64,000 bases of DNA from a virus (IMGVR_UViG_3300025138_000016); one strand, 5' to 3'. Positions 7,642-52,053 are shown, numbered from the stretch's first letter. Notes: generated by a model not told the origin, from the letters alone. Translations and numbers: made by a program.

Positions 7642-7792
7642 CTTTATCTATTTTATTACCATAATAATCATGTGTACCATCTCTATAAGCTTTCTTTCTA
7701 GCTGATAGTATAAGCGTTGATACCCAGATACCATACCCCATAAAGGTTAGTATAATTATACCTGCTATTATATTTAATATTTCTAAGATCAT
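7631..7792 (-). CDS. Small membrane protein (53 aa)
   Basis: Not in the ORF track. MILEILNIIAGIIILTFMGYGIWVSTLILSARKKAYRDGTHDYYGNKIDKDES; ATGA overlap with the nrdA stop. Confidence 0.7.
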   Translation of the reverse strand: MILEILNIIAGIIILTFMGYGIWVSTLILSARKKAYRDGTHDYYGNKIDKDES

Positions 7793-28190: not shown

Positions 28191-28799
28191 TTAATCTCCA
28201 GATTGCAACTCTTTTCCAAAATGAAAGATCCTAGAATCAGAGCTATAACTAAACCATCCTGTAGCGATATACTTAACACTCTTTAAGTCAGGTGTACTAG
28301 CATGGTAGTGTGTATAGGCTGCTGGCCAATAAATTAATGAGCCGGCTTCAGGCTTAAATTCTATATCATGCTGAGGGAATATTGTCCTACCACCTTCAGG
28401 TACATCATTTAAATATATCATCCATACCATAAATCTTGAACTGGATAATTCTGAATTACCTTGCTCAGTATGTAAGCCTGTAAAACCTCCACCTGGGTTT
28501 GCTTTTTGAAACTTAATATGTTCTAAGTGATGCCAATGCTCATTATTACCTTCCCAGTCATCAGGCTTATTAGCCTTAATAGCATCACATATTAAATCGG
28601 TTGCAGGCTCTAATGATTGAAAGTTAACAGGAAAGATACTTATATCATTTCTGTGATCATTATTATCAACAAATATTCCTTTTGGTCTTTCGACATCAGG
28701 TGCGAAGTATTCTGATTTTGTTTCAATCGCTGCTATAATATCCTTACAATCTTGTCTTGAGATTGCTTCAGGTATTATTTGTATAAAGTTCTTAGACAT
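28191..28799 (-). CDS. 2OG-Fe(II) oxygenase (prolyl-4-hydroxylase-like)
   Basis: HTE, WMIYLNDV..GG.T.F, WPAAYTHYH and KYIATGW motifs. Confidence 0.9.
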   Translation of the reverse strand: MSKNFIQIIPEAISRQDCKDIIAAIETKSEYFAPDVERPKGIFVDNNDHRNDISIFPVNFQSLEPATDLICDAIKANKPDDWEGNNEHWHHLEHIKFQKANPGGGFTGLHTEQGNSELSSSRFMVWMIYLNDVPEGGRTIFPQHDIEFKPEAGSLIYWPAAYTHYHASTPDLKSVKYIATGWFSYSSDSRIFHFGKELQSGD

Positions 28800-29436
28800 A
28801 ATATTGTAATTGTTCCTCAGTACATATTGCTTTTAGTTCATTACACTTTGAGCATTTCATACAATGCTTCTTATTACCTTCAAAGCATACGTAAATAAGC
28901 TTCTTTAATTGATCAGGTAACATTTGATATTGTTCTTGTTTACTAAGATGGGCAAGAGGTGCTTGAAAAGAGAGAGATAAATCAACTGTTGCAGCTGCTT
29001 TAACATAACCCTCGTACTGTGCTTCACCAAACTCATGGAAGCTATCTCCTGCTGTATCATTAGGTGTTAGTTTACCACCATTATGACCAAAGTAAACAGC
29101 TTGAACTATATTAGTAATAGCTAAGTTAAAAGCTATTGTTGCCCATTGCTGATGCATTGGAGGAAAGCCATTATAATTAAATGTCTTTTTATAATGCTCG
29201 TGTGACGCTTCCCTATTAAACAAATAGCCTGAAGCAGGATTATAATCAGTATGTATAGTTGTTACTTCAACTCCAAGCAGTTTAGCTTTTTGTTGTATAG
29301 TATTTATTTCTCCAGGATTAGATTTAATATGAAAGCAATAAGGTTCATATCCATTCTTCTTTAAATGATATACTAATGCTGTTGATTCAACTCCACCTGA
29401 AAATGGTACTATTATACTATAGTTACGCAGCATCAT
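28792..29436 (-). CDS. QueC-like PP-loop ATPase (second, divergent copy)
   Basis: FSGGVEST PP-loop, APLAHLSK and C-x6-HC-x2-C-x2-C zinc site. Confidence 0.75.
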   Translation of the reverse strand: MMLRNYSIIVPFSGGVESTALVYHLKKNGYEPYCFHIKSNPGEINTIQQKAKLLGVEVTTIHTDYNPASGYLFNREASHEHYKKTFNYNGFPPMHQQWATIAFNLAITNIVQAVYFGHNGGKLTPNDTAGDSFHEFGEAQYEGYVKAAATVDLSLSFQAPLAHLSKQEQYQMLPDQLKKLIYVCFEGNKKHCMKCSKCNELKAICTEEQLQYYV

Positions 29437-29593
29437 TTGATGTATCAGGATGTGAGACATTCATTTCGATATATGCTTTCATAAATCTTCTCACTTCGCG
29501 AGACACAGACGTATCGTTTGCTTTACATGCATGCTTGAAGTCTTTCTTAACTTCTGGGCATACTTTGATAAGCATCTGTACTTTCTCATCCAT
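29423..29593 (-). CDS. Ribbon-helix-helix (Arc/CopG-like) DNA-binding protein (56 aa)
   Basis: Not in the ORF track. MDEKVQMLIKVCPEVKKDFKHACKANDTSVSREVRRFMKAYIE...; beta-alpha-alpha pattern and GAGG RBS. Confidence 0.75.
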   Translation of the reverse strand: MDEKVQMLIKVCPEVKKDFKHACKANDTSVSREVRRFMKAYIEMNVSHPDTSNDAA

Positions 29594-29728: not shown

Positions 29729-31063
29729 GCCCTTACCAGCGTCCGTCTTATCAAAGACGGGCGTATCTTCAACCAAATCATCCTGAGCAGTCTGCTCTAC
29801 ATCATAAAGCTTCATCTTCGCTCTATCCACCCCAACTACAAATCGTCTATTATAATTAGGATCTGAATATCTATTCTTTAACTGCTTAAATAATATCTGA
29901 GCTAAGTCTTCTAGTTCTTCAGTACTTATCATAGCAAACATAAAGTCAGCAGTAGCAGGTAGTCCAAACGATTCAGAAGTATCTTCTAGTCCAACATCAG
30001 ACGATGTATAACCAGATCTAGTTACCTGCGTAGCAGATACAATAGGTACATTAAACTCAACAGCTAAGCCTCTAAGCTCTTCAGCAATAGACTTAACAAT
30101 AGTATATGAGTTAGCACTTGCACCTTTAACTCTAGCACTCATACATATATTAAGATAATCAATATAGATTATATCAGGTATGAATTGCTTCTTAATTTTA
30201 AGCTCTTGAAGTAAATGTCTAAAGTGACCAGCATGAGCGCCTGCAGTAGGATACTCTTTAACAATAAGTTTACCGCTAGTCTTAGAAGATACTCTACCCA
30301 TCTTCTTCTGATAGGCTTCTCTAGGTAGCATTTTTAATTCATCAATAGTAGTATTAAGTAAGTTAGCATCTATACGCTCAGCTATTCGCTCTTCAGCCAT
30401 TTCCATAGTAATGTATAATACATTAAGGCCTTGCATTAGATTAGCAGCAGCACAGTGACACATAAAGAGAGACTTACCTACACCAGTACCAGCCATAGCT
30501 ATATTTAAAGTCTTTCTATTTAAACCGCCTTGAGTGATACGATTAAGATAATCTATATCAAAAGGTACCTTAACTTCTTTCTTCTGATAGAAGTCAAATC
30601 GCTCTTCAGCATCATCAATAAAGTCATGCCCGATATGATTATCAAACGATACAGATAAAGCATCGGATAGCATCTGAGGTAGAGCACCTTTATCTTCATT
30701 AGTAGTACCATCTAAAATTTGTATACCATCCATGATAGCATTATAGACTGCTTTCTCTTGACAGAACTTCTCAGTACTATCTACTACCCACTCAGTATCT
30801 TTCTCTTCAGAGGGTTTAAGTTCTTTAATATAGGTATCAGCTTCTAGAGCTATATCATCAGACATTCCGCCTGTATTAGACATCTCAATAGCTAAAGCGT
30901 CCTGACTAGGACATAGGTTATATTTTTCATGATACTCAGCAATACAATTAAAGAGTTTCTTCTCTACTATGTTACTAAAGTATTCAGCTTTAAGGAAAGG
31001 TATACACTTACGAGTATACTCATCGTTAAATACTAGGTTACTTATTATAGTTTTTTCTATCAT
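29699..31063 (-). CDS. 41: Replicative DNA helicase (T4 gp41-like)
   Basis: AGTGVGKS, YITMEMAEE, IDYLNI, ATQ, SESFGLPATAD and KQLKNRY motifs. Confidence 0.97.
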   Translation of the reverse strand: MIEKTIISNLVFNDEYTRKCIPFLKAEYFSNIVEKKLFNCIAEYHEKYNLCPSQDALAIEMSNTGGMSDDIALEADTYIKELKPSEEKDTEWVVDSTEKFCQEKAVYNAIMDGIQILDGTTNEDKGALPQMLSDALSVSFDNHIGHDFIDDAEERFDFYQKKEVKVPFDIDYLNRITQGGLNRKTLNIAMAGTGVGKSLFMCHCAAANLMQGLNVLYITMEMAEERIAERIDANLLNTTIDELKMLPREAYQKKMGRVSSKTSGKLIVKEYPTAGAHAGHFRHLLQELKIKKQFIPDIIYIDYLNICMSARVKGASANSYTIVKSIAEELRGLAVEFNVPIVSATQVTRSGYTSSDVGLEDTSESFGLPATADFMFAMISTEELEDLAQILFKQLKNRYSDPNYNRRFVVGVDRAKMKLYDVEQTAQDDLVEDTPVFDKTDAGKGLVSKFNDFI

Positions 31064-31653
31064 CGTTTAAAAGACGCATTAAATGAGATTGATATTCTCG
31101 GTTCATCGGTAGCTTTTTGCTCAGGAACACTATGCTCCAACCATCCAGGCCATATAAACAAGTCGCCGCTTTTAGGGTTAAACTTTTGCTCTTGCTCCCA
31201 TCTATTAAGGAAGCCTTCACCGCCTGCCCACCCTTTGATTATAGCGTAGAACGGGCTTCGGATCAAGAAAGGACTAGAATCACTATCAGTGTAGATATAA
31301 ACAGTACCCGAAAGTAAACTTCTACCGTGGTCGTGCCAACAGTGGTGAATACCTTCACTGTAGACATTATACCATGCCTGAATGCCATCAGCATCAAGTT
31401 TAGCAGCGAGGTCCGGGTTAGTATCGAGACAAGTCCCAACATACCCTTTCGCGAATTTGAGGATTTCATTTATTATATCTTCCTTATGTTTAACACCCAC
31501 TAATCCATCTTCATCATAGAATGAAGTATAGTTAGTCTTGTCAGGGGATTTACTATTACGTAATGATAAGATGCTTTGTCGAATTTCTTCTAAGTTAAGA
31601 CTCGACTGCTCCGTCAACATTGGTATCGGAAATAAGTCCTTCATCTTCTTCAC
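31060..31653 (-). CDS. 2OG-Fe(II) oxygenase (TIGR02466-like)
   Basis: WYNVY...HDH..S.LSGTVY, WPGWLEHSV and RISISFN motifs. Confidence 0.88.
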   Translation of the reverse strand: MKKMKDLFPIPMLTEQSSLNLEEIRQSILSLRNSKSPDKTNYTSFYDEDGLVGVKHKEDIINEILKFAKGYVGTCLDTNPDLAAKLDADGIQAWYNVYSEGIHHCWHDHGRSLLSGTVYIYTDSDSSPFLIRSPFYAIIKGWAGGEGFLNRWEQEQKFNPKSGDLFIWPGWLEHSVPEQKATDEPRISISFNASFKR

Positions 31654-32726: not shown

Positions 32727-32998
32727 CCCTTATATATTTTATCTAATGCATCAGAGAACTCTTCAATCTTACCTAACCTATCAGGCCAGTAAATATAATC
32801 CTTTGATGGGTTCTTTTTAAGGTTGTTTAGCAATGGTTGAACCATACCATATAATGCTTCTACTCTTTCTTCTAATTCAGATGATGAAGCTGTTGCTGTC
32901 TCTGCGCTTTGTTTAGCGGCTTGTACAACTTCTAATTCATCAGCATCCATAGCTGAAAAGCCGAAGTCAAAGCTGTATACGTTTGATGTGTTAGCCAA
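32723..32998 (-). CDS. Conserved phage hypothetical protein
   Basis: FDFGFSA...PLLNNLKKNP.KDYIYWPDR; lies between gp43 and uvsX. Confidence 0.8.
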   Translation of the reverse strand: MANTSNVYSFDFGFSAMDADELEVVQAAKQSAETATASSSELEERVEALYGMVQPLLNNLKKNPSKDYIYWPDRLGKIEEFSDALDKIYKG

Positions 32999-35489
32999 AA
33001 TAATCCTCCAATGTCGCTCTATGTTCTATTTCCCAACCAATAGCATCAAGAATAGTTTTCATAGGATCAACAAACGATTTCGTATATTGCATATCGTAGT
33101 CTATATATTGATTAAGACCTAACGCTGTCGGAAGCTGATTAGGACAAGCTATGACGTTCTCTCTCGATGGATTAGGTACCTTAAGGTAACAGAACTTAAC
33201 TTTATCGCCGTTCTGTACTGGCTGGAATCTATCTATCTTATTTTTATTTAGCATATGGTTATACATTAACGCACCACGAACATGAATAGGAGTACCTTTT
33301 CTATAGATCTGCGATGCATCAAAATACTTCTCAAGACCTTTACACCCTCTAGGGAACGCTACATCTTCAAAAGATAACTTTCTAAACTCTTCTCTATGCT
33401 TAGCAATGAAGTCAATAATAGCTGCTTCGTCTTTAGTTATAATAACATCAAGAGCATCTTTAATATACTTACGTACAACAGCAGGAGTAGAAGATCTAAC
33501 AGCTTCGATACCCATCATCTTCATCTTAGGCTTCTCGTAACGTACACCCTCTGAGTCAAAGACGTTCATGATATATCTTTTCTTAGCAGTCCATATAGCT
33601 TTATTACCTATATTTTCTCTAGCCATGACCATCTTATTTTCCATAGCATTTACATAGGTCGCAAGCTCTCCATAACTTTTTTCAATTTTCGGTTCAATAA
33701 TTTCAGCGCAGGACTTATCAAGAAAATCGATGATCTTTCCAGTTTCAGCGCCGTCTGGAAAGACTTTATGTACAAGCGGTGCCATATTAATGTATAGAGA
33801 GTCCGTGTCGATTGCGATGACGTAGTCTTCATTTTCACTTCCTAGAGTTTTATTTAAAAATTTATTGATAGCGTTCTCGGCCCAACGAATAGATAACTGA
33901 CCACCTTTAGTAATCGATTCAGTATTATCCATATCATGCCATCTAAAGTATTCATTACCTAACGCACCATAAGCTGAGTTAAGTTGAATCTTCTTAGCCA
34001 TCTGCATATTATAAGCTTGAGATATTTTATTAGAGAGTTCGTTAGAAGGATTCTTCTCATAATCTTTCTGATGCTGAATCATCTTCTTCTTCCATACAAC
34101 TCTATCGTCATACATCTTACGCATTAACTTAGGTAAGAAGCCTTCGAAGTCTCTAGTATACATATCACCATTAGCTGATATAGTACAGTTATTATCTTTA
34201 GCTTTTTGTATTACTTTACTATAAGCACCGTCTAGTATATCTTCCATACTAGGAGCATAACCAATCTTACCTTCATACGTTTCAGGAGATATATTATACT
34301 GCATAATTAAATGAGGGTATAGAGAGTTAAGATCGAATGATACAACCCAGTCATGCATACCTACTTGAGGGTCTTTAACATAAGCACCTTCAGCAGCTCT
34401 CTCTTTATCTTTATGCTTAAACTGAGGTACAACTATATTACGATTAAGTAGATAGTTATGTATAATAAGATCCCACATCCTTACAGACGTAAATGTATCT
34501 TGATAGTTAACTTTAGCATCATAAGCGATCGCTAATACTTGATCTATTAGTTTAAGTTTCTCATCTAGTCTTTTTACTAGTACAGTATCTTGAATATTGT
34601 AGTCAATAAACTTTTCCCAATCATGCTTATAAAGATCGAATAGACTATCATGCTCAGCATAATCCAGTTTACGTTCACCTAACTCAACGTGAGCAATATG
34701 ATCTAGTCTATATGACTCTTGCATTACAAAAGTAAACTTACGATACAATTGCATATAGTCTAAGATAGAAACGCCTAACGGATCAAATACTTGATTAGGA
34801 CGTCCTGCTATATGTACAGTCCTTTCCCTTAGAGCATTAAAGGGAGACAGCTTCTTAGCAAAGTCTTCACCTATGACATTAGTAACTCTATTAACAATAT
34901 AAGGTATATCAAAGAACTCAACATTCCATCCTGATACAACATCAGGGTCAATAGCACGCCAGCAATCTAAAAACTTCATCAGTAGATGAGCTTCATCGTT
35001 ACATTGAATATACTTAATGTTATCTTCTTTAGGTGTATAAGGTTGACATCCAATAGCAACAATATTGTTATTGAACTCTAAAGTAATAGCAGTAATCTCT
35101 TTATCTGCTTTCATTATATCAGGGAAGCCTTCATCAGCAGCAACCTCGATATCAATATAAACAGTCCTTACTTGCGTAGCATCATACTCAATAGTTTCTT
35201 CAGTATAGTTATCATTAATATAAGTATAAGCAAACATAGGTAAACCATAAACAGCTTTACCAGCTATGTCTTTATTTTCTTGAATATATTTTTGAGCGTA
35301 GTGAGGGTTATCGAACTCTTTCTTCATGACAGACTTACCGTCAAGAGTAGTATAACCAGTTTCTTGTCTTACCGGGCCGGTAAAAAGATAAGGACGGCAA
35401 GGTTCCTCGTAGCTGAATCGCTCGCCGTTCTCGTAGCCTCTATGAAGGATCTTCGATCCTCTAAGCTGAACATTAGTATAAAACTTCAC
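32991..35489 (-). CDS. 43: Family B DNA polymerase (T4 gp43-like)
   Basis: DIEV exonuclease, GWNVEFFD, DYNIQD, SFDLNSLYP, KIQLNSAYG, DTDS and KKRY motifs; GTG start; no interruption. Confidence 0.98.
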   Translation of the reverse strand: MKFYTNVQLRGSKILHRGYENGERFSYEEPCRPYLFTGPVRQETGYTTLDGKSVMKKEFDNPHYAQKYIQENKDIAGKAVYGLPMFAYTYINDNYTEETIEYDATQVRTVYIDIEVAADEGFPDIMKADKEITAITLEFNNNIVAIGCQPYTPKEDNIKYIQCNDEAHLLMKFLDCWRAIDPDVVSGWNVEFFDIPYIVNRVTNVIGEDFAKKLSPFNALRERTVHIAGRPNQVFDPLGVSILDYMQLYRKFTFVMQESYRLDHIAHVELGERKLDYAEHDSLFDLYKHDWEKFIDYNIQDTVLVKRLDEKLKLIDQVLAIAYDAKVNYQDTFTSVRMWDLIIHNYLLNRNIVVPQFKHKDKERAAEGAYVKDPQVGMHDWVVSFDLNSLYPHLIMQYNISPETYEGKIGYAPSMEDILDGAYSKVIQKAKDNNCTISANGDMYTRDFEGFLPKLMRKMYDDRVVWKKKMIQHQKDYEKNPSNELSNKISQAYNMQMAKKIQLNSAYGALGNEYFRWHDMDNTESITKGGQLSIRWAENAINKFLNKTLGSENEDYVIAIDTDSLYINMAPLVHKVFPDGAETGKIIDFLDKSCAEIIEPKIEKSYGELATYVNAMENKMVMARENIGNKAIWTAKKRYIMNVFDSEGVRYEKPKMKMMGIEAVRSSTPAVVRKYIKDALDVIITKDEAAIIDFIAKHREEFRKLSFEDVAFPRGCKGLEKYFDASQIYRKGTPIHVRGALMYNHMLNKNKIDRFQPVQNGDKVKFCYLKVPNPSRENVIACPNQLPTALGLNQYIDYDMQYTKSFVDPMKTILDAIGWEIEHRATLEDYFG

Positions 35490-37537: not shown

Positions 37538-37565
37538 ATTATAACCTAACGAGAGAGAAAGTCAA
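37538..37565 (-). promoter_or_regulatory. Sigma70-type promoter
   Basis: Minus strand TTGACT-16 nt-TATAAT. Confidence 0.6.
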
Positions 37566-38401
37566 CTATTATTTTGATTTTTATTTCTTAAAGGTCTTAC
37601 CTTCTTTCCGTATGAACCATTATAGTCTAAGCATATTCTATAAAGCAATCGATCTCCTTTTACTTCATTACGTTTATGTAAACTATTCCATTGGTCCATA
37701 AAGACTAAGTCACCTGCTTCCCATTCATGATGATAAACATATCTATCTTGAAAGCACCACTCCATTAAGAAGTTATATGTGTCTTTATCTAAGCCGCCTT
37801 GTATGTAATGGTAAGAGAAGAATAGAGCTCTATCACCATTATAGGGATGAGTATGTACTAAAGGTTTCCATACTCCTTCTGGATATAACTTTTTAGTATC
37901 AAACATAACGAGTTCTTTATCGTCAGGATCTAAGTTATAAAATGTATTGTTTTTGAATTGATAATTACAGACTGTATTATCGAGACGATATTTAACCTCA
38001 GTAGGTAAATCGTCATAGGCTTGTCTCATGTCAACAAAACTAGTAATAGAATCATCACCAGGCTTAACACAATAGAGAGCTACACATGCCTCATCTCCGA
38101 TGAGCTTCCTGCCGTTACCGTTGGAATGCCACCCCAGCTCTTTATCAGCAAAGATGCCAATCTTTTCGCCTTCAACTCTCTTATTGGTAACTCTGAATAG
38201 ACCAGGATACTCTGGATGCATATAAAACCTTTTAGGGTTCATAACATTACCGATCGTATTTGTTATACGTACGATATCTGATTCGTGTAAGTCTTGATCA
38301 CGGAGTATAGTGATATTATAGTTAGGTAATTTCTTACCAAACTTTTTAATCATCTCACTATCATACTCCTTGATGTTTATATCAGGAGTGTATACTTGCA
38401 T
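37562..38401 (-). CDS. TauD/TfdA-family dioxygenase-like protein
   Basis: TSFVDMRQAYDDLP, KPLVHTHP, YHHEWEAGDLVFMD, LHKR and RLLYR; the first metal motif reads WHSN. Confidence 0.85.
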   Translation of the reverse strand: MQVYTPDINIKEYDSEMIKKFGKKLPNYNITILRDQDLHESDIVRITNTIGNVMNPKRFYMHPEYPGLFRVTNKRVEGEKIGIFADKELGWHSNGNGRKLIGDEACVALYCVKPGDDSITSFVDMRQAYDDLPTEVKYRLDNTVCNYQFKNNTFYNLDPDDKELVMFDTKKLYPEGVWKPLVHTHPYNGDRALFFSYHYIQGGLDKDTYNFLMEWCFQDRYVYHHEWEAGDLVFMDQWNSLHKRNEVKGDRLLYRICLDYNGSYGKKVRPLRNKNQNNS

Positions 38402-42933: not shown

Positions 42934-43374
42934 TTAGCTTTCTACCTTCATTACGATTAAGTCAGCAACGTTAGTTCCAGGTTGGAAGAAACACTCACCG
43001 CCGTTAGCAATTAACTGACCGGAAATAAGACCTTTAAAGCCGGGCTCTAACATGGTAGTAGGTATACTACAACCACCAGCTTGTAATTGCTTATTAACAA
43101 TCATCATTCCGACATGACCTTCTGGTATATTAGCATATACATCAGATGTAAACTCGTACGTTCCTGGGAACATATGATAGATCTCTCTTTCTTTATCAGG
43201 GTCACCTGGGTCAATCATAGTTTGAAGCTCATAAGTCTCTCTAGCGAGCTCTTGATCGTCATTAATAACAAATGGGTTACCTTGATAACCTTTAATTGTC
43301 TTTGCGCTAATTGGTACTGAGTAACTTGTACCTTCGTCTGCACCATTTACTAGTGCTGTTGGATCTACTAACAT
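42934..43374 (-). CDS. Degenerate dCTP deaminase/dUTPase-fold paralogue
   Basis: PGTYEFT, EPGFKG and VADLIV align with the neighbouring dcd-like gene, but the RS and D motifs are lost. Confidence 0.65.
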   Translation of the reverse strand: MLVDPTALVNGADEGTSYSVPISAKTIKGYQGNPFVINDDQELARETYELQTMIDPGDPDKEREIYHMFPGTYEFTSDVYANIPEGHVGMMIVNKQLQAGGCSIPTTMLEPGFKGLISGQLIANGGECFFQPGTNVADLIVMKVES

Positions 43375-43875
43375 TTATTTCTCCTGTTTATATTTTTTAT
43401 CATGCTCTTTGCCTAAACCATAATCACCATCATACATTGAGAGTGATTCAGCCTCGAATAATAAGAACTGACCGAGTCGAGTTCCTTCTTTAGTTTTAAA
43501 TGGTCCAGAAGTGACATGTAGAGCCCCTGCCATTATACCCTGATAACCAGAGTCGTAAAGTCCTGAAGTTAAATAGACACCATTTCTATTCAACGTTGAT
43601 CTAGTAATAACAAAGCCCGCTTCACCTTCAGCTATGCTGACGATATTCTTAAACGTAACTTCGTAAGTACCAATCGGTAAATTGTAGTATCCATCTGCGC
43701 CTGACGCGACTTCAACTGAACCTCTATGCTGCTTCTTATCTTCATCAATAAGAAACTCAGAGTCATTTATAGAAAATATTTTATCTAATCTTAGATCTAC
43801 TGCATTAGGTTGAATGTCTTTAGGTTCGACATTAGTAAGGGAGGATGTATTTTTTTCACTTGCGATATTAATCAT
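43375..43875 (-). CDS. dCTP deaminase/dUTPase family protein
   Basis: IQPNAVDLRL, TRSTLNRNG, YDSGYQG, RLGQF and YDGDYG motifs. Confidence 0.88.
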   Translation of the reverse strand: MINIASEKNTSSLTNVEPKDIQPNAVDLRLDKIFSINDSEFLIDEDKKQHRGSVEVASGADGYYNLPIGTYEVTFKNIVSIAEGEAGFVITRSTLNRNGVYLTSGLYDSGYQGIMAGALHVTSGPFKTKEGTRLGQFLLFEAESLSMYDGDYGLGKEHDKKYKQEK

Positions 43876-44510
43876 TATATACTACCAAAATAATAAGGGT
43901 TTTCTTTAGTACTAAAACTACTTATATGATATAGTTCATTCCTCTCAAAGTCAATCCTGAAAGCCTTATTAGGTTCAGTAGGACTACTTCCTGGGAACTT
44001 AGTACTGGATATATTTAGCTGATCATCTATGAACATAGGTGATATTTCATTACGAAAAATAAATATTTCACCTTCGTCATATTGAAGACAACTATAAGTA
44101 CCATCAACATTATCCAATTGTCGATAGCCATGAGAAATAGCTTCATGTATTAAAGCTGTATCCCATTCAAGGTCAGATTCATATGTCTTCTTTAGAGACT
44201 TAATACAATCTTCCTTTATAATACCGTTGTGCCATAGAAGATCTGCTCCTTCCCTTCGTACGCTAGGGTGGATACTTTCTATGGCCGAAGCTGCGGTAGT
44301 AGGTGCCTGGATGTGTGCTACATAATACATCCCTCGTTCGGTCTCCAGACCGTCTAATGAGAATGGCCCCATACATTTTCGCTTCGTAACCAATTCTTTC
44401 GTTTTCAGACTATATTCCGATAACGAATGTGAGTGCTGACCTCTGTAAGCATTAAGTTCAGCTAACTCTAATAGTTTATCTAATTCTCTACTGCCAAATA
44501 TTGCGCACAT
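43875..44510 (-). CDS. Stand-alone class II (Ntn) glutamine amidotransferase
   Basis: MCAIFG (N-terminal Cys nucleophile), YRG, AHIQAPT, HP, WHNGII and DT motifs; directly downstream of queC. Confidence 0.88.
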   Translation of the reverse strand: MCAIFGSRELDKLLELAELNAYRGQHSHSLSEYSLKTKELVTKRKCMGPFSLDGLETERGMYYVAHIQAPTTAASAIESIHPSVRREGADLLWHNGIIKEDCIKSLKKTYESDLEWDTALIHEAISHGYRQLDNVDGTYSCLQYDEGEIFIFRNEISPMFIDDQLNISSTKFPGSSPTEPNKAFRIDFERNELYHISSFSTKENPYYFGSI

Positions 44511-44513
44511 AAT

Positions 44514-45272
44514 TTAAATATATTGTTGAGTTATTTTAATCCAATCAAAGCCTTCTACATATTCAATAGGATCGGCTCGATCAGCTTTTACAAAGTTCAT
44601 GATTCTTTCGGCACAAGTTGGACAGGTACCGCACGATTTACCATCTACTGGATTATAACATGAAATCGTATTAGAAAGCAACTCGAATTGTTCCATTTCA
44701 ATCGCAAGATCAATCTCTTGCTTTTTACTTAACTGGCTAAATGGAGCTACTATCTCAACACTATGCGTTCTATTTTGTTCAGCAACGTTATTTAGGCTAT
44801 CTACAAAGCGCTGAGACGTATCCCAATACCCATACTCGTCATGAACTTGAAGTCCAGTAAACACATGAGAGGCTTTCTTTACTTCAGCTAAAGACATAGT
44901 CATCGATAACATAATTAAATTCCTAAAAGGTACGTAAGTAGGTGGTTGCGGATCACCTAATACATCTTGTATAGTAGGCATAGTGATATCAGTACCACCA
45001 ATATTAGCTGACATCGGTCTAGCTATATCACCTAGTACATTTAAGTCTAATATCCTATGACGTATACCTAACTTATTACATAAAGCAAAAGCTCTTTCTA
45101 ACTCTACTCTCTGCTTCTGACCATAGTCATAGCTTACAGCAGACACTCGCTCTGCACCGTACTTGGCGACCAGTAACATAGTTACTACAGATGAATCTAA
45201 ACCACCTGAGAGCACAGCTAATACATTCTTATCTGTATTCGGTAGACTATCTAATGCTTCTTGTAATGTCAT
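44514..45272 (-). CDS. queC: 7-cyano-7-deazaguanine (preQ0) synthase
   Basis: LSGGLDSS, YDYGQKQ, TYVPFRN, YWD and SCY...CGTCPTCAER motifs. Confidence 0.96.
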   Translation of the reverse strand: MTLQEALDSLPNTDKNVLAVLSGGLDSSVVTMLLVAKYGAERVSAVSYDYGQKQRVELERAFALCNKLGIRHRILDLNVLGDIARPMSANIGGTDITMPTIQDVLGDPQPPTYVPFRNLIMLSMTMSLAEVKKASHVFTGLQVHDEYGYWDTSQRFVDSLNNVAEQNRTHSVEIVAPFSQLSKKQEIDLAIEMEQFELLSNTISCYNPVDGKSCGTCPTCAERIMNFVKADRADPIEYVEGFDWIKITQQYI

Positions 45273-45463
45273 GTTAGTAATTGTTTCACTCCGAGTACGT
45301 AATTCTCTGCCGCATCTTCTGCCCATGCTTCTGATTTGCCAGGATACATTTCTTGTTTAACTTCAGCACCATCTACAAAGAAGGTACACCCATATACTCC
45401 GCCTTCAAAGATAACTCTCGCCATCTTATTAGCATCAACGTATTCGCTTAAAAATTGAGCCAT
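45269..45463 (-). CDS. Small conserved phage protein
   Basis: KSEAWAEDAAENYVLG motif; coupled to its neighbours on both sides. Confidence 0.75.
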   Translation of the reverse strand: MAQFLSEYVDANKMARVIFEGGVYGCTFFVDGAEVKQEMYPGKSEAWAEDAAENYVLGVKQLLT

Positions 45464-46395
45464 TATTGCCTCGCTGTTTTTCTATGAGGCTCATCGCTAT
45501 CAACTAAACCTAATGCATAAGCATCTATAAGGTCTTGCGACGTCGCTCTAATAGGGTTAATATCAATACCACCACGTCTAGTATATAGACATGCTACTAA
45601 AATTTCTGTATCGTCAGCAAGCATATCTTTTAATCTCTTAAATACACACTCACAAATCTCTTCATGGAAGTGATTCTCTTTTCTCATACTAACAATATAA
45701 CGCATTAACGATTCAGGCGTTACACAATCTTCACCACTAATGTGGATATAGATATCACCCCAATCAGGCTGGTTAGTAATCCTACAGTTAGATCTTAGAG
45801 CACTAGAGGTAACTTGGAAAGGCATAAAGCCTAACATAGGAGCTCTATCTAAAGTATCAGGGCTCTCTTCGTACTCAATGAACTCAATATCTTCTACTTC
45901 AATAAGAGATTCTAATCTTACAAAGTGACCAGTAATAGGAGCTACAGGTAGCTCGTTCTGCTCATCATAATGAAACGATACATCTATCTCACATTCCAAA
46001 GCTTCAGTTAAGTCTGTAGTAATCTTTCTCTCTACATTTCGTATAGCATTAGTAATGGTACTACCCATCTTATGCATATTGTATGAGTTCATATATAACT
46101 TAAGTGACTTAGACTCAACAATACATTCACTATCAGAAGGGTATACTAATTTAACTACACCGCTAACAGGAAAGCCATTCTCTAATAGGAATGATACTTC
46201 ATAACAATTCCAAGAGTCAAAGCCTACGAATGGTAAGTCATCGTCATCTATCTTATATTCTGTTCTATTAAGTACTCTAGGTACAGGTACAAGTAAACTA
46301 CTATCAGCTCTATCAGGAGTAACATAAGGGTTAACTATGCTCCCGTCACCAGCTTTACCTAAGTGCTTACTTACAATTCTATCTAATTCTTTCAT
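45463..46395 (-). CDS. queF: NADPH-dependent preQ0 reductase, bimodular YqcD type
   Basis: WNCYEVS, VESKSLKLY QueF motif, LRSNCRITNQPDWG (catalytic Cys/Asp), HFHEE and YTRRGGIDINP. Confidence 0.95.
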   Translation of the reverse strand: MKELDRIVSKHLGKAGDGSIVNPYVTPDRADSSLLVPVPRVLNRTEYKIDDDDLPFVGFDSWNCYEVSFLLENGFPVSGVVKLVYPSDSECIVESKSLKLYMNSYNMHKMGSTITNAIRNVERKITTDLTEALECEIDVSFHYDEQNELPVAPITGHFVRLESLIEVEDIEFIEYEESPDTLDRAPMLGFMPFQVTSSALRSNCRITNQPDWGDIYIHISGEDCVTPESLMRYIVSMRKENHFHEEICECVFKRLKDMLADDTEILVACLYTRRGGIDINPIRATSQDLIDAYALGLVDSDEPHRKTARQ

Positions 46396-46923
46396 TTAAC
46401 TAATTACCTTTAAAACTTGATCTACTCTTTCTCTTACTGAGCCTGATACCGTAATATGTTCTCTAGGTAACTCAGTAATAAAGCCTTCAAATAGATCGCT
46501 TATTTCATCTCTGAAGTCAAGACTTATAGATCTTACTCCGTCATCAACTATATCAAACTCAGGTCTAATATAAAAAATATAATCATAACTACTAACTAAT
46601 CTATCATAGATAGCTTTAACCTTATCTAAAGTCTTCTTACTTACTTTATTATGATTATGTAAGTATGCAGTATAAACTAATCCATCTAAAGCAGTACGAT
46701 CAGTTAACATATGATCATACATAAACACATTAGCGATATGCTTCTGCATAATAAGTATCTGAGTTAGATCAGAACCAGCTTCATTTATATCAAAGCCCAT
46801 CTCTTTAATCTCTCTCGTCACTTCGTCACAAACAGTATACTGACTTAGCATCCTCTCAGATCTAAGAGCATTAAGTAAAGTAGTCTTACCTACTGATTGC
46901 GCTCCAGTAATACCTATTCTCAT
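46396..46923 (-). CDS. P-loop nucleotide-kinase-like protein (AAA_28/NadR-like)
   Basis: ITGAQSVGKTT, TDRTALD, DDGVRS and SGSVRER motifs. Confidence 0.85.
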   Translation of the reverse strand: MRIGITGAQSVGKTTLLNALRSERMLSQYTVCDEVTREIKEMGFDINEAGSDLTQILIMQKHIANVFMYDHMLTDRTALDGLVYTAYLHNHNKVSKKTLDKVKAIYDRLVSSYDYIFYIRPEFDIVDDGVRSISLDFRDEISDLFEGFITELPREHITVSGSVRERVDQVLKVIS

Positions 46924-47429
46924 AATTTACCTACAAAAAATATTTGCCATAACTTAACAGCCTCATGCCTTAAGTCTTCAGTTAATTCATCTACAGTAGT
47001 ACCTTTATGAATAATATAATCACTAAACAGTTCAGGAGTACCACCGTCAACAGTATCATCTACTCTATGAATAAGTACACCAGTACTTTCTAATCCAAGC
47101 TCAATAGCTTTCTTCTGAGGATGAATACCTTTTAATTCAGGATACTTAAATATGTCACCAGGATGCACATTATAAATCTTAGCTTTAATCTCAGAAGCTT
47201 TAAGAAGTCTCCAATACCCATGTAAGGTAACTAGAGTATCTTCATGAAGGTTCTTTAATAAGCATTCTATTTCTTTAGCAGGAGATATCTGAACAGAGCT
47301 CAGTCTTTTATCCCAATCAGTACGTACTTCATCACAAAGAACGAGATCAGGCTCAATGCCTATTTTATCTATAACCTCAGCTAACTCTTTACCCGAGTTG
47401 CTGAACAACGCTACCCATTTCTTCATCAA
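46920..47429 (-). CDS. PurN-like formyltransferase (DpdN-like)
   Basis: ALFSNSG, LHGYWRL, YNVHPG, YPELKG and STGVLIHRVDDTVDGG motifs. Confidence 0.88.
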   Translation of the reverse strand: MMKKWVALFSNSGKELAEVIDKIGIEPDLVLCDEVRTDWDKRLSSVQISPAKEIECLLKNLHEDTLVTLHGYWRLLKASEIKAKIYNVHPGDIFKYPELKGIHPQKKAIELGLESTGVLIHRVDDTVDGGTPELFSDYIIHKGTTVDELTEDLRHEAVKLWQIFFVGKL

Positions 47430-48216
47430 TATTTGCCCTGAATTTCATTATATTATAGAAGACTTTCGCTGCATTTTCAACAGGTTCTTCCATTAGTTCA
47501 AATAGCTTAACAGACTCTTTATCTTCTAGTCCGAATACACCATCAGTTTCAACATAATCTATACCCATCATACCATGTATAACAGGATTAGACGTATCAA
47601 TAGTATCGATGAAGTCATAGTCTTTACCTTTATAGAGAGCAAACTCCTGAGGTAAACCACAACCTAATAAATGATGAGGCTTATTATAATTAATAGCCTT
47701 CTCTTTAATAAGTAGATCAATTAAATGCTTTCTACCTTTCATCCAGCTATGATACTTAGTCGGCTCATCAGGATATATTTCCTCGAACCAACTATAATCA
47801 AATGAGATAGCAATAATGTCTGCCTCACTAGCCATAAACTTATAACAGTCAACAATCTCTTGCTCTGTCTTACCTTGAACAACTCCAATCTTAGACCCTT
47901 TTAAGTCTTCGTACTTAGACATCCAGCTGTTCCAATTAGCGATAGTACCATCAATGTCTTCTAATACATCTGGTACTATATAAGCAGAAGGTTTGAGCTG
48001 CTTACACCATGCCGCAAAGTCATCAGCATCGAATGCTGTACCTAGTTCAAAGATACTATTATCTAATATAATATATCTACCAGCTTTCTTCGCATCAATA
48101 AAATGATTATAGTAAGTTCTATTCTCTTCAAACAGATGAACTAAAGCATAATCGTAATCAGTTACTTTTGATACTTGCTTTATAATCTCTAAAGGTGCTT
48201 CGTGGGCTACTCTCAT
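47389..48216 (-). CDS. TGT-fold 7-deazaguanine transglycosylase-like protein (divergent DpdA-like)
   Basis: ILDNSIFE, VPDVL, GVVQG, HHLLG and IDTSNP map onto TGT catalytic motifs; no CxCxxC zinc site; embedded among que genes. Confidence 0.75.
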   Translation of the reverse strand: MRVAHEAPLEIIKQVSKVTDYDYALVHLFEENRTYYNHFIDAKKAGRYIILDNSIFELGTAFDADDFAAWCKQLKPSAYIVPDVLEDIDGTIANWNSWMSKYEDLKGSKIGVVQGKTEQEIVDCYKFMASEADIIAISFDYSWFEEIYPDEPTKYHSWMKGRKHLIDLLIKEKAINYNKPHHLLGCGLPQEFALYKGKDYDFIDTIDTSNPVIHGMMGIDYVETDGVFGLEDKESVKLFELMEEPVENAAKVFYNIMKFRANIDEEMGSVVQQLG

Positions 48217-48428
48217 TCAAAATATCCTTCTAATACCTCGATCTTATCATGCAGCTCTGCAATCTTACCGAGTTCGCCGTCTATTGTTTCTAGTAAGTCA
48301 GGATGCTCAGCAACACCGACTCCTTTCTGCATTAAATTTTCAACATTAATAATATGTTGACCGATAACAGAAGTATAATATTGCTTCTGTACACTAATAA
48401 TTTTATCTCTCATGTCCTTATCTAACAT
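48213..48428 (-). CDS. Conserved phage hypothetical protein
   Basis: H..NVE.L....VGVAEHPD...TI..EL pattern. Confidence 0.8.
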   Translation of the reverse strand: MLDKDMRDKIISVQKQYYTSVIGQHIINVENLMQKGVGVAEHPDLLETIDGELGKIAELHDKIEVLEGYFE

Positions 48429-49183
48429 TATTTACTCGCAAATTGTTGCTGTATCATAATGTCGTCAAAGAACTCTTTCTTAACATCAGGCTCGTTAAAT
48501 CTACCTTTAAGTACAGTAGTCTGCGTTAAAGATGAATGAGCCATAATGCCTCTGTTCTCACAACAACCATGCGTAGCGTGAATATATACAGCTAGGTCTT
48601 CAGTACCAGTAGCTGCATGCAGCTCTTTAACGATAGCATTACATAGTTCTTCTTGTAATGTACCTCTACGAGCTACCCATTGAGCGATTCTTGTATACTT
48701 AGATAAACCAATAACTTTACCATTAGGTATAATACCAATATAGGCAGTTCCTACAACAGGTTGATGATGATGAGAGCAAACAGATCTTAGTTCAGATCTT
48801 ACTACTAACATACCTTCATACTTGTCAGGTCCATCATTAGGGAATGCAGTCGCAGCAGGCTTATCAGTATACCTACCAGCCATAAGCTCATTGATATACA
48901 TCTTAGCTAGACGTCTAGGAGTACCCATCGCGTTAGGATCGTTCCTCCAATCAATTAAAAGTCTATGCAGTACTTCTTCGAAAGCTTCTGCTACTTCATC
49001 AATAAGATTCTCTCTTCCAGCGTCAGTCATTATCTGAGCTATATTATCATTAGACCAGGCACGTAGACCGTCTTTATGTATTAGGTTCCAATACAATTCA
49101 TGCACTTTATTCTCGCTTGAATCATGTTGATGATAAGTATCGTTTTTTATTACAGGAGCAGTTCTTGCTTTAATATTTTCCAT
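48428..49183 (-). CDS. folE: GTP cyclohydrolase I
   Basis: TPRRLAKMY, SVCSHHHQP, VIGLSKYTR, LQEEL and HGCCENRG motifs. Confidence 0.96.
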   Translation of the reverse strand: MENIKARTAPVIKNDTYHQHDSSENKVHELYWNLIHKDGLRAWSNDNIAQIMTDAGRENLIDEVAEAFEEVLHRLLIDWRNDPNAMGTPRRLAKMYINELMAGRYTDKPAATAFPNDGPDKYEGMLVVRSELRSVCSHHHQPVVGTAYIGIIPNGKVIGLSKYTRIAQWVARRGTLQEELCNAIVKELHAATGTEDLAVYIHATHGCCENRGIMAHSSLTQTTVLKGRFNEPDVKKEFFDDIMIQQQFASK

Positions 49184-49206
49184 ATGTATATTATATCCTA
49201 TTTTAC

Positions 49207-49662
49207 TTATGAATTCAAGTCTCTTTGATAGATAGCGCTATTAGCTCCGTGCTCAGCTACCTCGCAGGATTCAACCCAGCATCTACCATCTGACTTATCG
49301 TTAATTAATTTCTGAGCAAAGTTAAAAGCATGCTCAGCAAACTTCTCGGCACCTACGCCATCGAATATTCTAATCTCAGCTAGACCTATCTCTTCTAGAT
49401 GCTCTAACTCGCTTCGCATAGGGTCAGCTTTATCGACAACAGTCTTATGATCAAAGCTATCTTCGAGCCATCTCTTTAGGTCTTTTAGACCGCCAAAGTC
49501 AACTGCCCAGTTCTTATTATCAAGCTCATGACAACCGAATTTAAAAGTAAAGGCAAGGCTATAACCGTGCAGTAAATGACAATGCGAATGATCAGCATTA
49601 GGTTGACGGAACACTGCGCTTAAGCCAATGTTATGTCCGTAGTGTTTAGTACTATAGTACAT
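49207..49662 (-). CDS. queD: 6-carboxy-5,6,7,8-tetrahydropterin synthase
   Basis: SHCHLLHGY, VDFGGLK, FDH, AE and VAEHGANSAIY motifs. Confidence 0.93.
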   Translation of the reverse strand: MYYSTKHYGHNIGLSAVFRQPNADHSHCHLLHGYSLAFTFKFGCHELDNKNWAVDFGGLKDLKRWLEDSFDHKTVVDKADPMRSELEHLEEIGLAEIRIFDGVGAEKFAEHAFNFAQKLINDKSDGRCWVESCEVAEHGANSAIYQRDLNS

Positions 49663-50125
49663 CTTTATCCTCCCACCAGAAGTTTATCCATCTCTCGTCT
49701 TCATTACGAGAAATAGTTTTATGAAAAAAATCAGGCATAATATCCTGATCCGTATTTAAATATAGACAAGCAATGGATAAGTTCTCTTTAGGAAAGTCTC
49801 CAAACGTTTCTATAACTTGCGACAGAGTAGTCCCTGTATCAATTAGGTCATCAACTAATAATATATTTTGCCCTGCATTCATATCAGCAGGTATAGTTTC
49901 ATTGATCTCTTTATCCTCAAAGTCTCTTGTTGACCAAGTTAATGGTACAAGAGGTATCTCAAGAATGTATGATAGTCTAACCGCGAGTGGAAGTCCACCT
50001 CTTGCTAATCCAACTATCTTATCGTAATTAGTTCCTACAGCATTTATATTATTTACTAACGAAGTTATACCTTCATCGAAATCCTTTTTACTGTACTCTA
50101 TTTCTTTATTATCTTTTCCAAACAT
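49652..50125 (-). CDS. Type I phosphoribosyltransferase (xanthine/guanine PRTase-like)
   Basis: VGLARGGL, LLVDDLIDTGTT (PRPP motif), PDF and WINFWWE. Confidence 0.92.
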   Translation of the reverse strand: MFGKDNKEIEYSKKDFDEGITSLVNNINAVGTNYDKIVGLARGGLPLAVRLSYILEIPLVPLTWSTRDFEDKEINETIPADMNAGQNILLVDDLIDTGTTLSQVIETFGDFPKENLSIACLYLNTDQDIMPDFFHKTISRNEDERWINFWWEDKDVL

Positions 50126-50649
50126 TATTCATACCAAGTTACTAGCACGACTCTATTACCCTTTAGAACCTTACTGACTGAATGCTGAACATTCGGTCCG
50201 TATGCTATAGTTTCACCAACCTTCTGCTTAACGATGACGGGTATAATCTCATCGCCTGGCTTATAATCTTTCTCGTTATATCTGTTTAAGACAGAGCCAT
50301 CTTCGGGGACTTGCATATCAGATTTATAGTGAGGTTCATATACTATAATATCTCCACCATCAAGATCATTTGCCTCGACGAGTGTTATTGCAGTCTTCTT
50401 AACTACATCGTTATTATCAGAATGCTTACGAGTAAACGCTCCTTCGATATAGTCTAAGAAATATTGAGAATGAATCTTAAGTTCATCAGTCTCTAATTCC
50501 ATTATAAATTTATCACTTGGTACAATACGTTGAGTAAGATAGTGCAAGTTATAAAATCTCTTTATAGTAACTATTGGTAGAGAGTAATACAACTCTTTCA
50601 TCTTATTATGTACGCTCTCTTCAAGCATACCTTCGCTTTTATACACCAA
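50125..50649 (-). CDS. 2OG-Fe(II) oxygenase-like protein
   Basis: FTRKHSD (HxD), LDGG and QHSVSKV.KGNRVVLVTW. Confidence 0.8.
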   Translation of the reverse strand: MVYKSEGMLEESVHNKMKELYYSLPIVTIKRFYNLHYLTQRIVPSDKFIMELETDELKIHSQYFLDYIEGAFTRKHSDNNDVVKKTAITLVEANDLDGGDIIVYEPHYKSDMQVPEDGSVLNRYNEKDYKPGDEIIPVIVKQKVGETIAYGPNVQHSVSKVLKGNRVVLVTWYE

Positions 50650-51526
50650 TTAAATTACCCCATAAGTAAGTATGAACTCTAGCAGCTACATTATAGCCTC
50701 TCTTAAAGGCTTCAGCAGCAACGTCTCCATCTACTAGCTTCTGACCTTCTACAGTAGCACCAACAGGCATTATCCAAATAGGCCAATGCACGTGATGGTC
50801 TCTGAAAGCTTCAATAGTATCTTCGAGCTCTTTCCATGTCTCAGGCTTACCATCTACAACAAACTTAAGTTGCCCTGTGTTAGTAAACATCTGATACTTC
50901 TCTACAACTTCAGGACGAATAGCTCTCTTAGTCGTTTCTCCTGATACGTTAAATAATTTAGGGCTACATGATATAAATAATTCACTGCCCCATACATCTC
51001 TATACTCTTGCCAGAACTCTACTACCTCTGGTCTTATTGTTTGAGTACCATTAGTTTCATACGTTACAAACCTAGGATAGTCTCTTTCGTTTATCCAATG
51101 CTTCATCATATTCATACTACATATCTGAGCATGCTTCATAAAAGGCTCACCGCCAGTAAAGCACATATGTCTATCATTCCATTTACCATTATTCCATTTA
51201 TTAGTAAATCTTTCTCTTACCTTATCAGCTATCTCTACAGCTGTACCATTACGTTGTAAGTGCTTAAACTTCTTAGACCATGAATAAGAACTATCACATC
51301 CGAATTCAAATACAGGAAGCTCTTCCATATTCTTAATACCTATAAGATCAATATCTTTATAAGGTAGTTGATAGGTGTCTGGGTTAGTAGGATCTTCTTG
51401 ACCGAATCCATTACATTGTAAGTTACATAGAAAGAATCTCATCCATGCAGTCGGTCGTCCAGTATATTGACCTTCACCTTGAATAGAGTCGAATATCTCT
51501 GAGTAGTTATAAGTCTGCTCTGTCAT
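50639..51526 (-). CDS. queE: 7-carboxy-7-deazaguanine synthase (radical SAM)
   Basis: SEIFDSIQGEG, CNLQC...CDS (expanded Cys motif), FTGGEP, ETNG, SPKL and RVHTYLWG. Confidence 0.95.
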   Translation of the reverse strand: MTEQTYNYSEIFDSIQGEGQYTGRPTAWMRFFLCNLQCNGFGQEDPTNPDTYQLPYKDIDLIGIKNMEELPVFEFGCDSSYSWSKKFKHLQRNGTAVEIADKVRERFTNKWNNGKWNDRHMCFTGGEPFMKHAQICSMNMMKHWINERDYPRFVTYETNGTQTIRPEVVEFWQEYRDVWGSELFISCSPKLFNVSGETTKRAIRPEVVEKYQMFTNTGQLKFVVDGKPETWKELEDTIEAFRDHHVHWPIWIMPVGATVEGQKLVDGDVAAEAFKRGYNVAARVHTYLWGNLIGV

Positions 51527-52053
51527 AATTCGTCCATTACTTGCTGAACCCATTTTATTACTCTAGGGTAAGTTAATGTAGGTTCATTATCTTCATCAAT
51601 AGGTAGACCGAAGAAGGTTGATTCATCAGCTAAGCCGTTAGATTGCTCCCAACGATAGCCATCCGTAGATGTTAGTCCTATTAGCCTTCCACCATTCTGT
51701 ACAACAACACCAGCTAACATACCAAGACCATCTACAAAGTTATTAGCATAGCCAACTTGATCACCTAGCCCATATAGCGCTACAGTCTGACCAGTAAAGT
51801 CAATTGCTTCAAATTTAGATATAGAGTTGTTCCAGTCGTCTGAGTATTCACCATAGGTATCTAATCTAGGTTCACACCAAGTAGGTATTCCGAGTATAAG
51901 GAGATCTGCTTTCCAGTCTTCTGGCTTAGCATCTTCGACGTTTATTATGTCTTTTGAATGAAAGGCGTTTAGGATCACATCACCAACTAGTTTAGTGAAA
52001 CCAGTTTCGGTACCATAAATTAGCTTTACGCCTATCTCTGAGTTGAGACTCAT
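51523..52053 (-). CDS. Long-chain flavodoxin
   Basis: YGTETGFT, LGIPTW, YGLGDQVGY..NFVDG and F.GLPIDEDNE..LT..RV..W motifs. Confidence 0.93.
   Translation of the reverse strand: MSLNSEIGVKLIYGTETGFTKLVGDVILNAFHSKDIINVEDAKPEDWKADLLILGIPTWCEPRLDTYGEYSDDWNNSISKFEAIDFTGQTVALYGLGDQVGYANNFVDGLGMLAGVVVQNGGRLIGLTSTDGYRWEQSNGLADESTFFGLPIDEDNEPTLTYPRVIKWVQQVMDEL

Follow-up and report, generated by a model that had tools for sequence, protein, structure and literature searches.

A stretch of 64,000 nucleotides from the viral genome IMGVR_UViG_3300025138_000016 (hereafter the window) carries, at 43.4–52.1 kb, one minus-strand operon in which 7-deazaguanine genes are joined by a purine phosphoribosyltransferase (PRTase) and a P-loop kinase. 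The source is an uncultured marine T4-like myovirus without a close cultured relative, and when the cluster was compared with 50,697 phage records by megablast, no match appeared. We put at about evens the proposal that both enzymes function in a system for the complete replacement of G by a 7-deazaguanine and serve a branch of it that works on the nucleotide pool. Gene context appears to favour such a route over the published exchange of bases in DNA: a free nucleoside or nucleotide stage would be the easier explanation because the kinase is locked to the transglycosylase DpdA3, the only solved relatives of the formyltransferase DpdN act on a ribonucleotide, and genes of the pyrophosphatase type recur nearby. 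By its genes the cluster belongs with the known fdPreQ1/DpdA3 systems, to which it adds a further member with fdPreQ1 as the predicted product; read at the nucleotide level, it would vary a pre-replicative logic already known.

No purine modification known from phage DNA goes further than the complete replacement of G by 7-deazaguanines, and the literature credits this replacement to a putative, exceptionally efficient DNA transglycosylase, DpdA3. In the DNA of the Flavobacterium phage immuto_2-6A, dG is undetectable and fdPreQ1 amounts to 345,000 per 10^6 nucleotides, and phages phiST (dDG) and CP220 (dADG) are likewise fully G-replaced (PMC10516641). The same paper has no mention of a PRTase or a kinase; it reports that DpdA3 alone failed in E. 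coli and that cells infected with CP220 contained the free ADG nucleoside (PMC10516641). A modified-dGTP route had been allowed earlier, ‘as proposed for Campylobacter phages’ (PMC6884629). The nucleotide-level reading contradicts the current published model and was foreshadowed in 2019.

The PRTase and kinase genes

The original prediction, made from the DNA alone, described a PRTase-like gene overlapping queD and a P-loop kinase-like gene between a formyltransferase gene and queF, and it invoked the NrdAB reductase and the gp43 polymerase of the phage. All of these genes are found in the window, and the PRTase and kinase open reading frames (ORFs) are intact. The 3' end of the PRTase gene and the start of queD share 11 nt, while the PRTase ATG overlaps the stop codon of the oxygenase-like gene upstream (TAATG). 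The kinase start overlaps the formyltransferase stop (ATGA), and the kinase TAA is followed directly by the queF ATG. The genes central to the argument are as follows.

49652–50125, minus strand: PRTase, a type I purine phosphoribosyltransferase similar to xanthine-guanine phosphoribosyltransferase (XGPRT-like; 157 aa; PF00156, 1.3e-17)
46396–46923, minus strand: AAA_28 P-loop nucleoside/nucleotide kinase (175 aa; PF13521, 3.7e-19)
47389–48216, minus strand: DpdA3, a zinc-less transglycosylase of the tRNA-guanine transglycosylase (TGT) fold (275 aa; homology and AlphaFold2 fold)
46920–47429, minus strand: DpdN-like PurN-type formyltransferase (169 aa; PF00551)
45463–46395, minus strand: QueF, bimodular preQ0 reductase (PF14819 and PF14489; TIGR03138, 1.6e-65)

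The two genes are no accident of this genome. Both have counterparts in the 7-deazaguanine modules of unrelated phages, and each of the three phages in which 100% G replacement has been measured carries at least one of them. The immuto_2-6A cluster is homologous to that of the window, with the same gene set, the same DpdA3–DpdN–kinase–QueF order and the PRTase beside FolE. The PRTases of the two phages are 30% identical, and the immuto enzyme, unlike that of the window, has no loop between the pyrophosphate (PPi) loop and the phosphoribosyl pyrophosphate (PRPP) motif. The replication backbone of immuto_2-6A is of the PolA type, whereas the window has a T4-like gp43. A PRA-PH/MazG-like gene lies directly upstream of DpdA3 in immuto_2-6A; in the window, by contrast, two dUTPase-like genes follow QueC.

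Identity of the kinase

The kinase has the Walker A sequence GAQSVGKT and scores 70 bits with Pfam AAA_28 (cut-off 27). Foldseek searches with its AlphaFold2 model (pLDDT of 90) return deoxyadenosine kinase, deoxycytidine kinase, the ribosylnicotinamide kinase (RNK) of NadR and thymidylate kinase (TMPK) at E-values of 1e-8 to 1e-5, and the model matches the RNK domain of NadR with a TMq of 0.74 and a root-mean-square deviation of 3.0 Å. The profile of the kinase family also finds NadR RNK, with which it has a VDDGxRS lid in common (DDGVRS aligned to DDGLRS of NadR). Walker A motif, family score, a fold of the deoxynucleoside kinase (dNK)/TMPK type and lid are thus all those of an AAA_28/NadR-RNK-like kinase. 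Because of its fold matches and the NadR-RNK lid, the modelled protein is best described as a small-molecule nucleoside or nucleotide kinase.

The likeness to NadR covers the fold, the P-loop and the lid, but the kinase stands alone as a 175-residue protein without the nicotinamide mononucleotide adenylyltransferase domain. Its scores are under every curated cut-off for NadR, dNK and TMPK. The PHROG/GenBank label ‘thymidylate kinase’ does not hold at the sequence level (no PF02223 hit at E<=0.01; TMPK in the Protein Data Bank (PDB) at E=0.12), and the likeness to that enzyme is structural only. An enzyme acting on nucleoside monophosphates, as the original prediction had it, agrees with the small-molecule fold, although nucleoside kinases (NadR RNK, dNK) rank among the closest relatives no less than nucleoside monophosphate kinases do.

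Distribution of the kinase

DpdA3 has more than 554 relatives in IMG/VR. The kinase is present in 60 of the 81 scorable DpdA3 loci, nearly always between DpdN and QueF. In two more loci it comes next after DpdA3: that of a DnaE-type phage (L094) and that of a phage whose DpdA3 is fused to QueF (L095). In the Firehammervirus CP220, for which 100% G replacement is reported, it directly adjoins DpdA3, and QueF, DpdN and PRTase, all present in the window, are missing there. The kinase of the window is 36% identical to immuto gp203 and ~36% identical to CP220 gp057. CP220 also encodes another AAA_28 kinase, as well as an HD+AAA_33 fusion. In a complete 283-kb CDG-type genome, DpdA3 and the PRTase occur and no such kinase is found, which fits a need for the kinase only when position 7 of the base bears a substituent.

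Among the 50,697 phage records, close homologues of the kinase are confined to Firehammerviruses, immutoviruses and one group of Streptomyces phages. In the Streptomyces phage Karimac (L093:6210-7621), the AAA_28 kinase homologue overlaps an FkbM-type methyltransferase, with a SLOG-domain protein and a MazG gene near, and this locus may be another nucleotide-level modification module. The methyltransferase was also compared with DpdA3 and the match rejected (hhalign probability 0.3%).

The kinase and the PRTase do not behave as the single unit that the original prediction made of them: the kinase goes with DpdA3, the PRTase with FolE, QueD and QueE. Co-variation of the two on the DpdA3 tree is not significant, there being only 2–3 independent pairs.

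The PRTase

With 64 bits against a PF00156 cut-off of 26.3, the protein belongs to the type I phosphoribosyltransferases. Its PPi loop reads ARGG and its PRPP motif LLVDDLIDTGTT (VDDLIDTGTT); D92, D93, D96, G98 and T100 are invariant in 23 phage homologues. Asp in the DTG motif is typical of 6-oxopurine PRTases, and the best solved relatives are small archaeal enzymes of this kind (1VDM, 7e-14; Sulfolobus GpT-2, 7e-10). The PRTase resembles them and E. coli Gpt in size, in the DTG Asp and in a C-terminal aromatic ‘W..F.WE’ motif, and differs from them by its setting inside a deazaguanine operon. Its score with the XPRT equivalog NF006613 is 39.8 bits (cut-off 138), and sequence comparison points to an XGPRT-like enzyme that is no Gpt orthologue.

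A scan centred on the PRTase found 408+ viral relatives, and the neighbourhood counts refer to the best 80 loci. At least one of FolE, QueD and QueE lies within 7 kb of the PRTase in 66 of these 80 and at least two in 56. Taken singly, QueE is found in 63 loci, FolE in 49 and QueD in 35, but DpdA3 in 12, QueC or QueF in 2 and the kinase in 1. By these counts, the PRTase tracks the synthesis of 7-carboxy-7-deazaguanine (CDG) and not DpdA3 or the kinase. Cultured phages with a PRTase homologue in or beside deazaguanine genes are phiST, immuto, Brevundimonas phage MaInes (ribonucleotide reductase, deoxynucleoside monophosphate (dNMP) kinase, FolE, PRTase) and cyanophage BUCT-ZZ01 (QueE, PRTase, QueD, FolE). 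In phiST (CGPG_00044, L002:8428-9036) and MaInes (L096:4635-5300), the neighbour of the PRTase is a T4 gp1-like dNMP kinase beside the ribonucleotide reductase, so that a different kinase family fills the same neighbourhood.

For PRTase action on a 7-deazaguanine, biochemistry offers a precedent in TubE. This purine-PRTase homologue of the tubercidin pathway joins CDG to PRPP (PMC6112128). In the tubercidin and toyocamycin clusters of Streptomyces, TubE/ToyH is co-located with FolE, QueD and QueE, as is the phage PRTase. TubE has 194 residues versus 157 in the phage protein, and the TubE/ToyH pathway ends in a free nucleoside antibiotic, not in DNA. The combination FolE–QueD–QueE–PRTase plus a DpdL-like QueD paralogue is found in many phage loci. 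A 365-residue family that takes the place of DpdA3 beside the DpdL-like gene at many PRTase loci was considered and set aside: it is not TGT-like and looks like a GT1 glycosyltransferase.

A complete 328-kb jumbo phage genome with terminal repeats (L134/G009) has FolE, QueD, QueE, the DpdL-like QueD paralogue, the PRTase and a MazG-like gene. QueC, QueF, the AAA_28 kinase and DpdA3 were not detected in it, the last by local hidden Markov models (HMMs) that do detect the DpdA3 of a control genome. All absence calls for DpdA3 rest on such local HMM scans. A database profile search missed a control-genome DpdA3 that the local HMMs found, for which reason its DpdA3 negatives were discounted, and the PF01702 negative carries the same caveat. 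The gene set of this genome mirrors the tubercidin core in content, and the phage is a candidate user of a 7-deazaguanine nucleotide route like that of tubercidin synthesis. For the PRTase of the window, a TubE-like role on a deazapurine and the recycling of guanine appear about equally probable, so that the salvage of guanine, the alternative in the original prediction, keeps its place.

DpdA3 and DpdN

The DpdA3 of the window is 55% identical to that of immuto_2-6A and 42% identical to CP220 gp056. Its AlphaFold2 model has a pLDDT of 93, and the top Foldseek matches are all TGT/ArcTGT. This fold and the homology to experimentally linked DpdA3 proteins place it in the DpdA3 subfamily, although a search of Pfam, the TGT family included, gives no hit. 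The conserved Asp residues are kept with the TGT fold. The zinc subdomain (CxCxxC...H) is absent: the protein has three isolated Cys and ends at residue 275. The family is acidic (median pI 5.2), which is weak evidence because all proteins of the cluster are acidic.

DpdA3::QueF natural fusions of 531–568 residues occur in metagenomic phages (P0125, P0127, P0128; L095:10001-11701) and suggest that free preQ1 is handed to DpdA3. Two further forms of the protein were seen. In L094:10001-11761 (P0126), a 586-residue protein consists of a C-terminal DpdA3 and an additional N-terminal part of 318 residues, with MazG and dUTPase upstream and the AAA_28 kinase downstream. Tandem DpdA3-like ORFs, the second of ~290 residues, are present in a kinase-less clade (L018:6572-8231, L021:8765-10424).

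DpdN is 37% identical to its immuto counterpart, and all of its PDB sequence matches (16/16) are glycinamide ribonucleotide (GAR) transformylases. These, its only solved relatives, act on a ribonucleotide, GAR.

Putative genes for dNTP cleavage near DpdA3

Genes of the dNTP-pyrophosphatase type do accompany DpdA3, as a dNTP-level route would have it. The ‘hydrolase’ directly upstream of DpdA3 in immuto is PRA-PH/MazG-like, and the same gene is found in 36 loci. A MazG-like gene lies within the QueD–QueE–FolE–...–DpdA3 block of phiST and after QueC in the kinase-less clade; dUTPase and MazG genes stand just upstream of DpdA3 in L094, and a PRA-PH gene upstream of it in L095. At CDG-type loci, one gene after DpdA3, there is a DCD-family dUTPase-like gene of the same family as that at 43375..43875 in the window. 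The MazG-like proteins have no informative sequence match in the PDB (MazZ, E=0.76).

The logic of a dNTP-level route would be that of the hydroxymethylcytosine pathway of T4 (gp56 dCTPase, gp42, gp1 dNMP kinase) and of the Z-genome phages (MazZ, DatZ, PurZ), where a dNTP hydrolase, an enzyme that produces the modified mononucleotide and a dedicated kinase together lead to the complete replacement of one base. The enzyme families differ, and the base change would here be a putative TGT-fold exchange or a PRTase reaction.

A proposed route through the nucleotide pool

In the route proposed here, the base would be joined to a sugar phosphate outside DNA, by DpdA3 exchanging guanine on free deoxyguanosine or dGMP or, alternatively, by the PRTase with PRPP in the manner of TubE. 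The PurN-like DpdN would formylate the aminomethyl group, and the kinase with its dNK/RNK/TMPK fold would add phosphate to the modified nucleoside or nucleotide, a substrate that the kinases of the host may refuse. NrdAB (in the ribonucleotide branch) and a nucleoside diphosphate kinase would finish the dNTP for incorporation by gp43, and an enzyme of the dNTP-pyrophosphatase type may lower dGTP. If the PRTase is inactive on deazapurines, it could convert displaced guanine to GMP and so return GTP to FolE. We infer every substrate and the order of the steps; the gene identities, folds and conserved associations are observed. Three published facts fit this route: the replacement is complete, DpdA3 by itself did not work in E. 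coli, and the ADG nucleoside occurs free in infected cells.

A fuller scheme is offered tentatively and would surprise us less by failing than by holding in every part. DpdA3 would not work on DNA but be a guanine:7-deazaguanine transglycosylase for free deoxyguanosine or dGMP, partnered by the AAA_28 kinase and by a pyrophosphatase that cleaves dGTP, in the way of T4 hydroxymethylcytosine synthesis; the PRTase would provide a second, TubE-like entry via PRPP and ribonucleotide reductase; and fdPreQ1, dADG and dDG would all be made in the pool. If the pool route is true, the TGT superfamily gains a new class of substrates, the failure of DpdA3 in E. coli is explained by missing kinase and pyrophosphatase partners, and a compact enzyme set becomes available for 7-substituted 7-deaza-dGTPs and for fully modified, restriction-resistant DNA. 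With the coordinates given here, the conserved partners (kinase, PRTase and pyrophosphatases) are open to direct study in two cultured phages, immuto_2-6A and CP220.

Several observations weigh against the pool route. For the superfamily of DpdA3, tRNA and DNA are the only known substrates, and the study that quantified the modifications assigns insertion to DpdA3 and proposes that all of them are post-replicative (PMC10516641). Both genes are patchily present. The kinase state changes at least four times on the DpdA3 tree, and at least three clades keep DpdA3–DpdN–QueF without a kinase. The complete genome of CP220 has no PRTase, and since its DNA is 100% dADG, the PRTase cannot be the universal insertion step, which removes the PRTase route of the original prediction as a general one. 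The DpdA3::QueF fusions likewise point to DpdA3, and not to the PRTase, as the consumer of free preQ1. A 91%-complete phage carries the PRTase with no deazaguanine genes found, so the family can do ordinary purine salvage. No MazG-like gene was found in the 64-kb window, whose only dNTPase-type genes, after QueC–Gat, resemble a regular dUTPase and a degenerate second copy. Many phages carry MazG and dUTPase genes, and for this reason the pyrophosphatase neighbours are suggestive only. CP220 gp055 (HD plus kinase) was considered as a dGTPase and rejected, as NCBIfam leads to HDIG/CCA-enzyme and Pnkp-like RNA-end enzymes. What stands of the pre-replicative, dNTP-level proposal is the conserved company of the genes, the kinase fold, the TubE precedent and the pyrophosphatases; the absence of a PRTase from CP220, the kinase-less clades and the separate distribution of the two genes tell against it.

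The published model can be extended by salvage, and in that form it is a real possibility, though not the one we would expect to prove right. DpdA3 would swap every G in replicated DNA for preQ1, and DpdN would formylate it in DNA; the PRTase would turn the released guanine to GMP, removing a competing product and refilling GTP for FolE; and the kinase would aid this loop (GMP to GDP) or be an unrelated nucleotide gene. The TGT fold and conserved Asp residues of DpdA3, its use of free preQ1 as seen in the fusions, and the published post-replicative proposal all suit this model, as do the XGPRT-like nature of the PRTase with its invariant DTG Asp, its usual place next to FolE, its occurrence without any deazaguanine genes and the clades that dispense with both kinase and PRTase. 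The model leaves no role, however, for a dNK/RNK-like kinase that is locked to DpdA3 even in CP220, where PRTase and QueF are missing; GMP kinase is of another family and is already present in hosts. Nor does it have a role for the recurrent dNTP pyrophosphatase genes. In the complete genome with PRTase and CDG genes and no detectable DpdA3, no guanine would be released for the PRTase to recycle. The missing zinc subdomain and acidic character of DpdA3 and its failure to modify DNA in E. coli also speak against insertion in DNA. To our knowledge, all other complete base replacements in phages are pre-replicative, which counts against this model too.

The failure in E. coli might mean that DpdA3 lacked an ATPase partner, and the P-loop protein, which adjoins or is near DpdA3 in several lineages, might drive DNA transglycosylation in the way of bacterial DpdB. 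To put preQ0 into DNA, bacterial DpdA depends on the hydrolysis of ATP by DpdB (PMC10164549), which is likewise a pairing of a TGT-family enzyme with an NTP-hydrolysing partner; it modifies <0.1% of G, at specific sites (PMC10516641). DpdB has a ParB fold with a DNA-binding tunnel, whereas the kinase is a 175-residue single-domain protein of the dNK/TMPK/RNK fold with a substrate lid and no DNA-binding domain. The DpdA3 of the window has no zinc subdomain, and some DpdA3 clades have no P-loop protein. A DpdB-like, DNA-linked ATPase role for the kinase is unlikely, and we give it very little weight.

Both genes might also be ordinary auxiliary metabolic genes, the PRTase for purine salvage and the kinase for salvage of nicotinamide riboside or deoxynucleosides, with no link to the modified base. 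Automatic public annotation does call the kinase a ‘nicotinamide riboside kinase’, PRTase homologues occur in phages without deazaguanine genes, and the homologous kinase of Streptomyces phages is paired with an FkbM methyltransferase and not with DpdA3. This reading is improbable in view of the translational coupling of both genes within the operon, a gene order that is constant across gp43, PolA and DnaE replication modules, the FolE/QueD/QueE company at 66/80 PRTase loci and the CP220 kinase, which adjoins DpdA3 far from any NAD gene or QueF.

Other genes of the operon and the window

The remaining genes of the cluster, and the polymerase and reductase genes of the window, are listed below. 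The Pfam search with the QueE protein gave no hit, and its assignment comes from clustering and the family HMM.

51523–52053, minus strand: flavodoxin, likely the reductant of QueE (PF00258)
50639–51553, minus strand: QueE, divergent radical-SAM CDG synthase (clusters with immuto QueE; family HMM, 1e-112)
50125–50649, minus strand: 2OG-Fe(II) oxygenase-like gene between queE and the PRTase gene (weak PF13640)
49207–49662, minus strand: QueD (PF01242; phrog_2389)
48428–49183, minus strand: FolE, GTP cyclohydrolase I (PF01227, 3e-38)
44514–45326, minus strand: QueC (PF06508, 2e-50; TIGR00364, 165 bits, above cut-off)
43875–44510, minus strand: stand-alone amidotransferase-like protein (phrog_12378), found after QueC in window-type clusters
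43375–43875, minus strand: DCD-family dUTPase-like dNTP pyrophosphatase (NF002598, 1e-27; PF22769)
42934–43374, minus strand: degenerate paralogue of the dUTPase-like gene (clusters with the DCD family; NF002598, 4e-6)
32991–35489, minus strand: gp43 family-B DNA polymerase (~50% identical to cyanomyophage gp43)
7789–10029, minus strand: NrdA, large subunit of class Ia ribonucleotide reductase (PF02867, 2.5e-124)
5652–6764, minus strand: NrdB (E. coli R2 structures, 2e-121)

NrdB is separated from NrdA by a methyltransferase-like ORF (6715–7641), and a SegE-type GIY-YIG homing endonuclease (5076–5540, minus strand; PF19835, 6e-35) lies just downstream of nrdB. The ORF at 10434–11447 (minus strand) beside NrdA was considered as NrdB and rejected, being a DnaG-type primase (TIGR01391, 1e-10).

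The oxygenase-like gene at 50125–50649 is kept in window-type clusters only (9 loci). A second, divergent QueC-like gene (28792–29460, minus strand; 222 aa; PF06508, 4e-10) is situated 15 kb off the cluster, and a 2OG-Fe(II) oxygenase gene (28191–28799) adjoins it. Oxygenase-type genes are unusually dense in the window, with others at 17332–19641, 31060–31653 and 37562–38401 (minus strand); the types include Asp/Asn beta-hydroxylase-like, fatty-acid desaturase-like, 2OG-Fe(II)_Oxy_5 and TauD-like proteins.

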